Shown: positions 2,794 through 5,488 of the stretch, piece after piece
How the letters are laid out: each line of letters opens with the position of its first letter
How positions within the stretch are numbered: position 1 is the first letter of the stretch
Source of the DNA: a virus
Lineage: Duplodnaviria > Heunggongvirae > Uroviricota > Caudoviricetes
Direction: 5' to 3' (one strand)
Length of the DNA stretch: 5,564 nucleotides
Virus record (IMG/VR): IMGVR_UViG_2681813234_000001
Location: 1-5,564 of that record
Program-made: the position numbers and the translations under genes
The notes under the pieces: generated by a model
Databases searched by the model: none
Told to the model about the DNA's origin: nothing
The model's input: only the letters and a program-made list of their open reading frames with translations

Positions 2794-3191
2794 TGCCAGC
2801 GAAATTAAGAGGTGTCCGGCAGGCTGTAGAGAGAACTTCGCAAATTGTGGATGAGATAATCGCCACGAAAGCTGTGCGTGCAATCAAGTCAGCGACATAC
2901 ATCATCCGCACCGAATCAGCCACGCTAACGCCAATTGATACATCAACGCTGATTAACAGCCAGTTTGATACCGTGGAAGTTAACGGAACGCGAATCACTG
3001 GCAAGGTTGGCTACTCTGCGAAATATGCGCTGTATGTCCACAACGCCAGTGGGAAACTTACAGGCAAACCACGCAGCAACGGTAATGGTACGTACTGGTC
3101 GCCGGGTGGTGAACCGCAATTTTTGACCAAGGGAGCACGACGCACAAAAGACCTTGTTGATGGCGCGATTAAGAAGGAGATGACACTCTAA
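2793..3191 (+). CDS. HK97 gp10-like tail-completion / neck protein (132 aa)
   Basis: ATG 2793 overlaps the upstream stop (TAATG). The pattern ...TLTPIDTSTLINSQ...GKVGYSAKYALYVHNASGK...PQFLTKG matches my memory of the HK97 gp10 family consensus (D-T-G-x-L ... YAxYVE-like ... FL-KG). Confidence 0.55.
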   Translation: MPAKLRGVRQAVERTSQIVDEIIATKAVRAIKSATYIIRTESATLTPIDTSTLINSQFDTVEVNGTRITGKVGYSAKYALYVHNASGKLTGKPRSNGNGTYWSPGGEPQFLTKGARRTKDLVDGAIKKEMTL

Positions 3192-3565
3192 TGAATATGC
3201 TTGAGCTGGTTGATGCATATCTTCAGGATGCCGGATTGTATGATGGCTGGACTTCGCAGTTGCAGTTCTGGAATGATACCGGAGATGGTAACGAGCAATT
3301 TATTGTCCTGCAATCAAACGGCGGCACACAGGTGATGGATGGCCTCGGCGGTGATTTCTATTTCTCGCTGTACGTTGTTGGAAAACAAGGCCAGTACAAT
3401 GTTGCTGATGTTGATGCGAAAGCCAATGAGATTATCGAATACATCAAGACGCACCCGATTGATTCATGCGTTAACTACATCCAGTTGCAGGCTCCGCTCG
3501 GTCGGCCGATGTTGACGGAAGAAAAAAGACCAGTGCATGAGCTTCTATTGCGGGTTGTGAAATAA
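3191..3565 (+). CDS. putative tail terminator protein (gpU-like position, 124 aa)
   Basis: ATG 3191 overlaps the upstream stop (TAATG). It is the last gene before the terminator and the major tail gene; size and position fit a tail terminator. The call is mainly by synteny. Confidence 0.4.
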   Translation: MNMLELVDAYLQDAGLYDGWTSQLQFWNDTGDGNEQFIVLQSNGGTQVMDGLGGDFYFSLYVVGKQGQYNVADVDAKANEIIEYIKTHPIDSCVNYIQLQAPLGRPMLTEEKRPVHELLLRVVK

Positions 3566-3567
3566 AT

Positions 3568-3594
3568 AAAGCCGCATGAAGCGGCTTTTAATTT
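3568..3594. terminator. bidirectional rho-independent terminator
   Basis: aaaGCCGCatgaaGCGGCttt hairpin (stem 3568-3575 / 3581-3588) followed by TTTTAATTT on the plus strand and by TTTATTTATT on the minus strand. It ends both the rightward neck operon and the antisense tRNA. Confidence 0.65.
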
Positions 3595-3670
3595 GGTGGA
3601 CACGGACGGATTTGAACCTTCAATCAGCCGATTATGAGTCGGTTGCTTTAACCAATTAAGCTACGCGTCC
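3594..3670 (-). tRNA. tRNA with anticodon CAU (elongator Met or lysidine-modified Ile2 type), CCA encoded
   Basis: Minus-strand read GGACGCG-TA-GCTT-AATTGGTTA-AAGC-A-ACCGA-CTCATAA-TCGGC-TGATT-GAAGG-TTCAAAT-CCGTC-CGTGTCC-A-CCA. Acceptor stem 7 bp (one G-U), perfect D stem, anticodon loop CUCAUAA with U33 and A37, T-loop TTCAAAT. Caveats: one A-G mismatch in the T stem and an A-C at the first anticodon-stem pair. G1-C72 is paired, so it is not an initiator. Confidence 0.6.
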
Positions 3671-3704
3671 ATAAGTGCTGGTTTAAGCATTGCCAGCGTG
3701 CTTT

Positions 3705-3770
3705 CTTAATATCCAGCCCCGTAACCCATACATACCCCTACATATGATTGCGATAATGCTGGATATTAAG
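3705..3770. repeat. perfect 13-bp inverted repeat (cttaatatccagc / gctggatattaag) around a 40-nt loop
   Basis: Arms at 3705-3717 and 3758-3770 are exact reverse complements. A 13-bp inverted repeat within 100 bp is unlikely by chance in 5.5 kb (rough expectation about 0.01). Confidence 0.55.
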
Positions 3771-4045
3771 TGCTGTGGTGGCCGGTGCTGATCTCCGGCT
3801 TAGGTGCGAAACGGCACGGGTTTACGTACTGGATTCGCCGCATTTTTATAGCGCATCAGCCTGCGCATTCACCACAACGGAAAGAGCACTGCGCGGCACC
3901 TTTCACCAAATCCGCGAGGTCTACGTGTTCAATGCTCTTACCTGTTGCGTGCCGGTTACGCGTCCGGCGTCTTTCGACCGCTAATTGTAATTGAAGGATT
4001 GGATGTAATTAAATGAAATCATGGAACCAATCTCTGTTAAATCCT

Positions 4046-4074
4046 AATCTACACCACAAAATAATCACTGTCAA
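4046..4074 (-). promoter_or_regulatory. sigma70-like promoter, leftward (TTGACA-17-TAGATT), candidate promoter of the tRNA transcript
   Basis: Minus strand reads caggtgTTGACAgtgattattttgtggtgTAGATTagg: -35 at plus 4069-4074, -10 at plus 4046-4051. Near-identical architecture recurs at 5440-5468. Confidence 0.45.
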
Positions 4075-4080
4075 CACCTG

Positions 4081-4089
4081 TGATATAAT
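4081..4089 (+). promoter_or_regulatory. extended -10 promoter (TGaTATAAT) upstream of the major tail gene
   Basis: TGATATAAT at 4081-4089, about 27 nt upstream of the GGAG RBS (4116-4119) and ATG 4126. The same gatataatca motif recurs at 5481-5490. Confidence 0.4.
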
Positions 4090-4125
4090 CACCACGTTAG
4101 CAGCTAACACAATTCGGAGATCGAA

Positions 4126-4842
4126 ATGGCTATTTGTGCAAATGATAAAGGCGTTCTGGTCGGTCGCATGACCCGACTATTCCTTGCTGAAGGGTGCGGC
4201 GACGCAGTCCCGGAAGCAGGAGACTGGAAGTATTTGGGGTCAACCACCAGTAAAGGCGTTGACTACTCGCCGCAGACCACCACGTCGGAAGCTGATACCG
4301 CTGGCGGCTTTGTTTCCACTCTCGTTACCAGCTCTGATATGACCATCAGCGCAGAGGTTGAAATCCGCAAGAATGACCCGAGCGATGAGTTTGGTTTCCA
4401 TCGTCTTGTTGAGATTTACGCCACTGAACTGAAAGCGCGTCGCCAGCCTTCCTTGTGGGTGCGTGAGGTAACTGGTGCAACTATCGTTACCGCGTACTGC
4501 AACATCACTAGTATCAGCTACGAAGGTGGCACGAACGACATCGTTACTGGTAGCCTTGAGTTCAAGGTTTACGATTCTGACAGCGTTACCGTCGAAAGCC
4601 TTGAGCCTCTGGCATTCACTACCGACCTGCAATCAACTGGCAGCACTGGCAGCCCGTTAACTGTTGCTGTTGAAGGTGGCGTTGCTCCTTACACTTATGT
4701 ATGGCGCAAAGATGGTGTGGTTGTAGGCAGCGAATCTGGAGCAACACTGGCAAGCCCAACCGCTGGCGTGTATACCGTCACGGTAACTGATTCGTCTACT
4801 GACCCTGAAGTTATCCTGAGCACGGCTTGCACCGTATCCTGA
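4126..4842 (+). CDS. major tail (tube) protein with C-terminal Ig-like domain (238 aa)
   Basis: Track ORF; ATG 4126 with GGAG 6 nt upstream. Lies just downstream of the neck/terminator genes. C-terminal ~80 aa (LAFTTDLQSTGSTGSPLTVAVEGGVAPYTYVWRKDGVVVGSESGATLASPTAGVYTVTVTDSS) is an Ig-like (Big_2/PKD-like) beta-sandwich pattern typical of siphovirus major tail proteins such as lambda gpV. Confidence 0.6.
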   Translation: MAICANDKGVLVGRMTRLFLAEGCGDAVPEAGDWKYLGSTTSKGVDYSPQTTTSEADTAGGFVSTLVTSSDMTISAEVEIRKNDPSDEFGFHRLVEIYATELKARRQPSLWVREVTGATIVTAYCNITSISYEGGTNDIVTGSLEFKVYDSDSVTVESLEPLAFTTDLQSTGSTGSPLTVAVEGGVAPYTYVWRKDGVVVGSESGATLASPTAGVYTVTVTDSSTDPEVILSTACTVS

Positions 4843-5213: not shown

Positions 5214-5404
5214 TTCTTGTCGCCACTTTTAACCAGTGCCCAAACCAGTGCCGCAACCCACCCAATAAAGCTCCATCCGACAAGAATATTCAGTACGCAG
5301 ATTGCAGTCGTGTTTACGTGCTTGCGTTGCAGCGCCACAAAAGATGGAAGAAGATAAGCAAATATCACCAATCCAGCGAAAAGCAACAAAATAACAACAT
5401 CCAT
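5210..5404 (-). CDS. superinfection immunity (T4 Imm-like) family small membrane protein (64 aa)
   Basis: Track ORF; ATG 5404-5402 with GAGGTGA RBS 5 nt upstream. Two TM segments and the motif AYLLPSFVALQRKHVNTTAICVLNILVGWSFIGWVAALVWAL, which matches the superinfection-immunity small-protein family consensus as I recall it (YFLPSIIA-x-R-x-H-x-N ... LGW-x-IGW ... ALIWA). Confidence 0.7.
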   Translation of the reverse strand: MDVVILLLFAGLVIFAYLLPSFVALQRKHVNTTAICVLNILVGWSFIGWVAALVWALVKSGDKK

Positions 5405-5439: not shown

Positions 5440-5468
5440 AATCTACATCACCACCTCACAGGTGTCAA
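5440..5468 (-). promoter_or_regulatory. sigma70-like promoter, leftward (TTGACA-17-TAGATT), for the three-gene cassette
   Basis: Minus strand reads ggtggtgTTGACAcctgtgaggtggtgatgTAGATTcaag: -35 at plus 5463-5468, -10 at plus 5440-5445. TSS about 29 nt upstream of ATG 5404. Overlaps the inverted repeat GGTGT-ca-ACACC (5461-5472). Confidence 0.5.
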
Positions 5469-5479
5469 CACCACCGAGA

Positions 5480-5488
5480 TGATATAAT
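5480..5488 (+). promoter_or_regulatory. extended -10 promoter (TGaTATAAT) for the downstream rightward gene
   Basis: TGATATAAT at 5480-5488, about 18 nt upstream of AGGA (5506-5509) and ATG 5518. Confidence 0.4.

Follow-up and report, generated by a model that had tools for sequence, protein, structure and literature searches.

RNAs that imitate tRNA are known from phages as well as from bacteria. The C4 antisense RNA of phages P1 and P7 and the CI RNA of phage P4 resemble tRNA precursors and are cut from longer transcripts by RNase P. Phage T4 has rnaC (species 1) and rnaD (species 2), RNAs whose function is, to our knowledge, still unknown. YrlA is a non-coding RNA with a tRNA-mimicking domain which is found in bacteria and in some phages, and which in one case is cleaved by RNase P (Chen et al., 2014, PMC4201824). 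Its tRNA-like part is closed by a stem that replaces the anticodon arm, keeps the canonical nucleotides of the T and D loops and lies beside Ro60; features of bacterial Y RNAs are an adjacent Ro60 (Rsr) gene and the motif GNCGAAN0-1G (PMC4201824). Here we analyze 5,564 nt from a tailed phage (positions 1 to 5,564 of IMG/VR virus record IMGVR_UViG_2681813234_000001; the whole stretch is called the window below), in which a tRNA-like four-way junction lies in a 455-nt interval between a tRNA gene and the gene for the major tail protein.

We consider it likely that the interval forms a leftward non-coding unit of its own, about 470 nt long, whose tRNA-like RNA would be matured into a stable mimic of tRNA. 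The unit has the order promoter (4074-4046), leader, a hairpin called module 1, the tRNA-like RNA called module 2 (3878-3772), a hairpin block called module 3, a tRNA with anticodon CAU, and a terminator (3588-3568), and one RNA would be transcribed across all of it. The evidence comes from the anatomy of the unit, its conservation and covariation, the strand on which the pairing is kept, the promoter and terminator signals and the persistence of the unit where the tRNA is absent. We used Rfam 15, ARAGORN, PHROG, Pfam, blastn, scans for promoters and terminators, z-scores of folds against shuffled sequences, and a covariance model, R1. An earlier reading made from the letters of the window (the sequence-only reading) had proposed that the interval is non-coding and could be a structured RNA; fold and covariation agree with this and place the RNA on the strand of the tRNA.

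Module 2 (3772-3878, minus strand) comprises 107 nt and is defined by R1, by covariation and by the minimum-energy fold. It is closed by helix P1, in which GUUGUGGUG (3870-3878) pairs with CACCACAGC (3772-3780) over 9 bp including one U·G. The 5' strand of P1 is followed by the linker AAU (3867-3869), by the D-like hairpin P2 (3851-3866, GCGCA-GGCUGA-UGCGC), by the variable arm P3 (3800-3850), which has 51 nt and in the predicted fold a 6-nt apical loop, and by the T-like hairpin P4 (3781-3799, GCCGG-AGAUCAGCA-CCGGC), directly after which comes the 3' strand of P1. GCUGA in the P2 loop (3856-3860) is complementary to UCAGC in the P4 loop (3787-3791). The minimum-energy fold of 3772-3878 yields the four-arm junction with z = -3.31. 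As modelled, the layout is that of tRNA, with an acceptor-like stem, a D-like arm, a region in the place of the anticodon and variable arms, a stacked T-like arm and a contact between the first and the last loop. Positions 1 and 2 of P1 are unpaired in 47% and 32% of the sequences and positions 3-9 are paired almost always, so the conserved stem is 7 bp long; together with the 5-bp P4, to which it is joined without a linker, it would form a stack of 12 bp as in tRNA. For 3772-3878 the R1 score is 89.3 bits (E = 9e-25) when the minus strand is read, and 4.0 bits for the plus strand; it should be noted that the window sequence is one of the 78 diverse members of the R1 seed.

The covariation was analyzed in an alignment (A4) of 108 distinct sequences in which the variable arms were swapped for a fixed linker. 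Exact anchors were used to gather the sequences, which were kept if P1 had no fewer than 6 of its 9 pairs and the stems no fewer than 4 of 5. This inflates the fraction of paired cells, which is 95.8%, compared to 85.7% in shuffled columns and 27-48% with slid partners. Both sides have changed in 17 of the 24 pairs (8 of 9 in P1), there are 213 double-change cells compared to 47 in shuffles, and on each of the five reported measures the alignment surpasses all 500 shuffles. An alignment of homologous spacers, which the sequence-only reading had suggested as a check, thus contains compensatory changes. At genome sites collected without a filter on P1, at least 7 of the 9 P1 pairs are present in 64 of 103, the chance expectation being about 1.7%. 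In a second set, gathered by the P2 pattern, the 9 nt that precede AAU differ freely between members and are matched by 9 complementary nt following P4; P1 partners are, for example, TGGAGCCGG/CCGGCTCCA, GATTGGATG/CATCCAATC and TCTAGTCGG/CCGACTAGA. The loop-loop helix is 99.8% paired across the family; ten variants have G·U, and a double compensatory change (GUCGA/UCGAC) is present in one member.

The RNA is encoded by the minus strand. This assignment is made because four kinds of evidence agree: helices 2-4 contain 32 G·U pairs and 10 non-pairs, the stem of module 1 keeps a conserved U·G, in 33 of the 34 family members with a tRNA no more than 1 kb away the two share a strand, and the element of lambdoid prophages, situated between Q and holin, points in the direction of the late operon (one E. 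coli case checked). The folds point the same way, with minus-strand z-scores of -2.19 (3760-3965), -3.31 (3772-3878) and -4.08 (3671-3775); the predicted transcript 4039-3565 has a z-score of -3.5. The plus strand folds no better than its shuffles (z = 0.03).

Module 1 (3879-3947, minus strand) is a conserved hairpin consisting of H5 (RNA CAACAGGUAAGAGCAUUG, 3930-3947), a 38-nt variable insert V1 (3892-3929) and H3 (RNA CAGUGCUCUUUCC, 3879-3891). Among 75 distinct combinations of H5 and H3, 97.6% of the cells are paired compared to 93.0% in shuffles, and 40 double-change cells are found against 6.4, values which none of 500 shuffles attains. The V1 of the window is of a type common to HK629-type E. 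coli prophages. In L014, L059, L194, L220, L222 and L233 the insert holds a canonical T arm (e.g., GGGUUCGAGUCCC), which means that module 1 can form another tRNA-like unit in its own right; L220 has in succession a real tRNA, module 1 and module 2. Tandem arrays were considered as the general form and rejected, since 119 of 131 loci have one H5 and one H3, single units being typical.

Module 3 (3677-3770, minus strand, fold z = -4.08) consists of a long hairpin (3705-3770) with a 13-bp stem (3705-3717/3758-3770) and a small hairpin (3677-3697) with the stem 3677-3681/3693-3697. The 95-nt block 3676-3770 is 97-100% identical in six relatives, with few substitutions and irrespective of whether a tRNA follows. 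The block is more conserved than the flanking protein genes, and this includes an interior of about 40 nt within the stem. Module 3 is found only in the Skate-like phage group and in the viral contig L091. It contains the weak promoter candidate of the sequence-only reading, TTAAGA (3709-3704) and TTAAAC (3686-3681) separated by 17 nt; the sequence is there and falls under the threshold of the promoter scan.

The unit is headed by a leftward promoter of the sigma-70 type, TTGACA-17-TAGATT (4046-4074, minus strand), which matches in 10 of 12 positions and is the sole such match in 3400-4200. The sequence-only reading had already singled out this strong promoter, some 370 nt upstream of the tRNA, and it is the credible start, unchanged in six relatives. 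Transcription would begin near 4039. The window as a whole has only three matches of at least 10/12, which all lie on the minus strand and head one minus-strand unit each; the one at 5468-5440 has hexamers identical to those at 4074-4046 and precedes minus-strand genes starting at 5404. The leftward promoter appears to overlap a rightward extended -10, TGnTATAAT (4081-4089), which would serve the major tail gene, and this divergent block (4045-4091) is invariant in six relatives. The window has three divergent promoter blocks of like design (1130-1175, 4046-4091 and 5440-5488), which coincide with every switch in the direction of transcription. Their leftward hexamers are TTGACA-17-TAGATT twice and TTGACG-17-TATAGT once, the -35 overlaps a conserved GTCAACA, and about 10 nt past GTCAACA each block has a rightward extended -10 of the form TGnTA(T/A)AAT. 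The 5' leader of the predicted transcript (3948-4038, minus strand) contains the hairpin GCCGG...CCGGC at 3951-3968 and is 89-96% conserved in close relatives, 3950-3986 being identical in L018. An intrinsic terminator (3568-3588, minus strand) ends the leftward unit and, judged from its sequence, probably also the rightward gene for the tail-terminator protein.

The unit belongs to a large family. With blastn the whole interval is found at 77-87% identity in Skate-, Saltre- and Shuimu-viruses, and short segments at 93-100% identity in the lambdoid HK629 and mEp460, the N4-like IME11, 157-160-kb Ackermannviridae of Klebsiella and others, nearly always in unannotated DNA; blocks also recur in the Ackermannviridae UPM 2146 and SopranoGao. 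The blocks 3771-3802, 3851-3891 and 3930-3953 of the window are collinear in IME11 and HK629 with spacings that differ by 23, 13 and 12 nt. In the alignment invariant blocks are separated by unrelated segments of variable length, and the invariant blocks are mutually complementary (TTGTGGTG to CACCACAA, and AGAGCA to TGCTCT). The H3/P1 pattern is found in at least 120 IMG/VR contigs, giving 109 distinct units, the P2-hairpin pattern in at least 120 further contigs, and the 20-nt core GAAUGCGCAGGCUGAUGCGC in at least 120 GTDB species genomes. Among the matches listed, 64 of 103 scorable GTDB sites have the full architecture, i.e., at least 64 bacterial species. The taxa with the 20-mer include Enterobacterales, Pseudomonas, Xanthomonadales, Burkholderiales, Rhizobiales and Desulfo-/Geobacter-like bacteria, and it is also found in single metagenome-assembled genomes of Flavobacterium, Phycisphaerales and Coriobacteriia; about 10 matches in Xanthomonadales were rejected as coincidences in coding sequence. 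The blocks 3849-3947, which comprise module 1 and P2 and not the whole junction, are present in 808 of 5426 complete E. coli genomes (about 15%). Nearly all of the E. coli matches listed have no annotated feature beneath them, and the one inspected is inside a prophage, between Q and holin.

The neighbours of the element are those typical of lambdoid phages. The nearest upstream open reading frames (ORFs) are enriched for Q antiterminators and CI-like repressors (Pfam, 133 neighbours) and the nearest downstream ones for holins, lysozymes and N peptides (149 neighbours); these neighbours include no constant protein partner, and about 70% of the flanking ORFs are co-directional with the element. 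In the ATGCAGATG subfamily (Pseudomonas-type, L136, L223, L282, L300 and L326) the closing stem comes immediately after a hairpin and U-tract which look like an intrinsic terminator, the junction reading ...GGGCUUUUUGCUUU followed directly by AUGCAGAUG; since a promoter would not fit in between, transcription of these copies would depend entirely on read-through of the terminator. Two prophage contigs have sub-threshold DicF-like matches a few hundred nt from the element, at L052 2190-2238 (29 bits) and L039 1020-1067 (27 bits), compared to a gathering score of 48.

The body within P1 differs even among close relatives: R1 matches IME207 and does not match SeSz-2, sal3, Skate or INT55. Skate, INT55 and many E. 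coli prophages have canonical bodies inside the same leader and closing stem, with the D arm GCUC-AAUGGC-GAGC, the T arm GCAGG-UUCGAUU-CCUGU, a long middle arm and a variable-arm hairpin. One sister unit (L052) reaches 40 bits with the Rfam tRNA model, for which the gathering score is 29. The kissing-loop version of the window therefore occupies the position of a recognisable tRNA body, and module 2 of the window is itself not a tRNA. The 3' flank of P1 reads GCACUU in the window; across the family NCCA is found in 10 and NCC in 52 of 202 members. In this flank C and A are frequent and G is scarce (the second position is C in 53% and G in 2.5% of the 202 members), and its composition is a partial echo of the 3' end of tRNA.

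None of 5426 E. coli genomes contains a match to the variable arm (3798-3853), even at E = 10, and on this ground we rejected that it is a host-derived fragment or has an antisense target there. The proposal of the sequence-only reading that foreign DNA has been captured is only partly right, in so far as the modules are horizontally shared among unrelated phages. In another member, L049, P3 (4600-4646) matches helix 11 of small-subunit rRNA (RF02542 positions 172-218, 32.9 bits, E = 4.6e-8). By eye a helix-11-like P3 is also present in L053, L059, L060, L062 and L124, and its stem shows paired differences from the typical gammaproteobacterial 16S rRNA. Such a P3 looks like a mimic of an rRNA helix displayed on a tRNA-like scaffold.

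The sequence-only reading had also considered that the interval is a long leader of the tRNA. As a function this would be that of a structured 5' extension acting in cis on the processing, stability or yield of the tRNA and having no role of its own. The interval does lie upstream of the tRNA in the same orientation, between it and the only strong promoter, and some family members are situated within same-strand tRNA clusters. The relatives speak against it. The tRNA is absent from SeSz-2 and INT55, and in IME207 Arg and Ser tRNAs take its place; all three retain the promoter, the hairpins 3947-3879 and 3770-3677 and a body within the same closing stem. Furthermore 192 of 226 family members (85%) have no tRNA inside 1 kb, and the tRNAs that are found near members are 32 upstream and 32 downstream. 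The leader function is thus improbable, the tRNA is an optional passenger of the non-coding RNA unit, and since the unit persists without it the spacer is better called a non-coding RNA operon which sometimes carries a tRNA. Another cis-acting function would be that of a transcription element, like the HK022 put RNA or boxA/nut, which makes RNA polymerase resistant to Rho or to terminators. H3 contains UGCUCUUU, which we take to be the core of the rrn boxA antitermination signal, and in 56 of the 80 members whose closing stem is of the enteric type a [CT]GCTCT motif lies in the 18 nt preceding P1 (background 0.9%). The Q or CI-like genes upstream and the holin, lysozyme or N genes downstream would place the element just after pR' or pL, and the unit of the window, being untranslated, would be exposed to Rho. 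Against this, the motif is present in only 4 of the 122 members with other closing stems, so that we rejected boxA as a family-wide feature and regard it as restricted to the enteric subfamily; the boxA-like 8-nt core of H3 is base-paired with H5 in a helix backed by covariation, whereas boxA acts single-stranded; there is no fixed position relative to promoters across the broad family; and the unit in the window ends at a strong terminator right after the tRNA. We give an antitermination function little credence.

Two further explanations deny the RNA any role. The boundary sequences could be sites for recombination or homing, by which small cassettes are exchanged at the DNA level, the RNA structure being incidental. 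This would account for the mosaic make-up of the window, which combines an HK629-type V1 with an L020-type P3, and for close relatives (spacer 84-87% identical) with wholly different bodies in the same closing stem; HNH endonuclease genes are sometimes nearby. It would not account for covariation which preserves pairs, many of them G·U and thus A·C mismatches on the opposite strand, nor for an orientation which tracks tRNAs and operons, and no recombinase or endonuclease is a constant neighbour. We hold this explanation to be very improbable, and we would rather regard the exchange of cassettes as a result of the conserved flanks than as the reason for their existence. A present or former small protein is more improbable still. 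The two plus-strand frames noted in the sequence-only reading are indeed open over 3770-3994 (ORFs 3770-3994 of 74 aa and 3775-3984 of 69 aa, both GTG-initiated), the minus strand, in whose frames it had noted stops, has no ORF of at least 30 aa between 3603 and 4009, and some GenBank records (Skate, INT55) call small hypothetical ORFs in the homologous gap. Neither ORF has a PHROG or Pfam match, the spacing of the blocks in homologues shifts by 23, 13 and 12 nt and whole segments are replaced, and conservation tracks helices rather than codons; the replacements and the indels that are not multiples of three dispose in the same way of a decayed ORF.

Several observations weigh against the preferred explanation, a unit making a stable tRNA mimic, in addition to the inflation of the pairing percentages mentioned above. 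ARAGORN and the Rfam tRNA model (E up to 10) call nothing in 3772-3878, only the tRNA at 3594-3670. The element of the window is without the GG and T-Psi-C loop motifs, a 7-nt anticodon loop and an encoded CCA, and its T-like loop has 9 nt. In many non-enteric members the closing stem reaches, together with its flanks, at least 18 bp, which an acceptor stem of tRNA does not. Two base pairs of the closing stem face competition from module 1, which lies directly beside it and could thereby hinder RNase P. The sequences of P2 and P4 vary little. Finally the transcript, its ends, the cleavage by RNase P and the stability of the product are all predictions, and the function as decoy or scaffold is speculation.

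If the tRNA-like RNA is indeed matured, the host enzymes for tRNA processing would release it as a stable species, RNase P cutting 5' of the closing stem and the 3' end being trimmed; we think the chance of this is about even. The tRNA-shaped mimic, which has no anticodon loop, would then engage a host factor recognising the acceptor stem, the T arm or the elbow, or alternatively act as a stable scaffold presenting the variable arm. Either function is speculative, and we would not call it probable; the match of the variable arm to helix 11 in several members is a hint in this direction. A more general proposal, also doubtful at present, is that Proteobacteria phages have portable tRNA-shaped RNAs which are cut from any transcript and stabilised by the tRNA enzymes of the host and serve as display scaffolds, the swappable third arm, in some members the helix-11 mimic, being a decoy or guide against host factors or anti-phage defences. 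Such a portable scaffold, if real, would parallel in nature what has been engineered as the tRNA scaffold. Conservation of the 20-nt core and the four-way junction extends to phages and prophages in Alpha-, Beta-, Gamma- and Deltaproteobacteria, and a stable tRNA mimic would add a widespread RNA player to the biology of phage and host at a time when tRNA-targeting defences and phage counter-tRNAs are emerging. A recurrent unannotated gap in the genomes of Skatevirus, Saltrevirus and Shuimuvirus and in the interval between Q and the lysis genes of lambdoid prophages would be explained, and R1 makes it possible to annotate the element.

The surroundings in the window are those of a Skatevirus/Saltrevirus-like siphophage of Salmonella or E. 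coli. The window matches 326 phage records, the top whole-window matches being 88-93% identical. The rightward genes for the tail-terminator protein (3191-3565; PF23842, E = 2e-41) and the major tail protein (4126-4842) are separated by the terminator hairpin (3568-3588), the tRNA and the 455-nt interval. The interval has the GC-rich block described in the sequence-only reading: the GC content is 0.52-0.56 over 3750-3950, 0.44-0.46 at 3600-3750 and 0.33-0.41 at 3950-4150. The four GC stems which were listed are also found, GCCGG/CCGGC at 3781-3799 and 3951-3968, GCGCA/TGCGC at 3851-3866 and CGCGG/CCGCG at 3892-3916. Three of these are parts of more widely conserved elements (the T-like arm, the D-like arm and the inner hairpin of V1); the fourth, at 3951-3968, is conserved mainly among close relatives. 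The tRNA (3594-3670, minus strand, anticodon CAU) is found by ARAGORN and by the Rfam tRNA model with 63.4 bits. Its homologues (at 735-811 in L003 and 780-855 in L008, for instance) have the anticodon CAU also in sal3, and AAU in Skate and IME11. Since GenBank records of several relatives label the homologue tRNA-Ile, the CAU tRNA may be Ile2 (lysidine) rather than Met.

A check against known RNA families had been proposed in the sequence-only reading, and Rfam 15 at permissive thresholds returned no family for the interval; in the window at E up to 10 nothing beyond the tRNA gene is above its gathering score. The same holds for the element at 25 other loci, which comprise 13 viral loci, the six relatives and loci of Burkholderia and Pseudomonas. 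Apart from noise, the Rfam matches are to true tRNAs, to one tRNA-like sister unit and, below threshold, to the RydB hairpin. Bp2_287 was rejected, the match in the viral loci being weak and on the wrong strand, and absent when Burkholderia and Pseudomonas were searched. In the literature within reach, i.e., outside subscription journals and supplementary motif lists, searches by sequence words and topic found no description of the element; a survey of 10,006 viral candidate structured RNAs may include it. The Pas sRNAs (a preprint) are different, being terminator-bearing Hfq sRNAs, and were rejected as a match. The cores of the hammerhead and other self-cleaving ribozymes were rejected too: CUGAUG is inside the P2 loop and not in a junction, and Rfam has no matches to them.

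RydB of E. coli K-12 (RF00118) has a hairpin, GCCGGAGAUAAGCGCCGG, which is nearly identical to the T-like hairpin GCCGGAGAUCAGCACCGG (window 3782-3799) and is directly followed by a strand complementary to the 5' part of the RNA (L368 714-781). It differs in having no D-like hairpin and no kissing partner and in being chromosomal, between sufA and ydiH. The window scores 13.7 bits with RF00118 (gathering score 50, E = 7.3, model positions 30-47) and R1 scores 12.1 bits on the rydB locus, in both cases through the hairpin alone; from the likeness of the sequences RydB might be a degenerate relative. YrlA differs in the closure of its tRNA-like part, the junction of the window being closed by an acceptor-like stem; Ro60 is not among the top neighbour families listed, and the window has no YrlA match in Rfam. 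With C4 and the CI RNA the element has in common a terminal stem enclosing hairpins. The loops of C4 pair with sites in the target mRNA, whereas the conserved loops of the window pair with each other, and the window has no Rfam match to C4 at E up to 10.

The element shares with canonical tRNA (RF00005) the 7-bp closing stem, the short linker before the first hairpin (3 nt in the window), the 5-bp 3'-proximal hairpin without a linker, the contact between the loops of the first and the last hairpin and the clustering with tRNA genes. It differs from tRNA in its D-like hairpin (5 bp and a 6-nt loop), its 9-nt T-like loop and the five Watson-Crick pairs between the loops. The family is neither annotated in the inspected records nor found in Rfam, and it is new within the tRNA-mimicking stable RNAs of phages. 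Its nearest companions among these are rnaC and rnaD of T4, which like it are non-coding, somewhat more than tRNA-sized and adjoin phage tRNA genes on the same strand; rnaC moreover has a canonical T arm at the end and is closed by a terminal stem. The T loop of rnaC is standard, unlike the 9-nt loop in the window which pairs with the D-like loop. Applied to the T4 region at E up to 10, R1 gives noise only, and we therefore rejected rnaC and rnaD as homologues. They are the closest analogues in kind, not detectably homologous. Should the present RNA prove to be a stable mimic of tRNA, the species 1 and 2 RNAs of T4, a puzzle for 50 years, would acquire a wide context for comparison.

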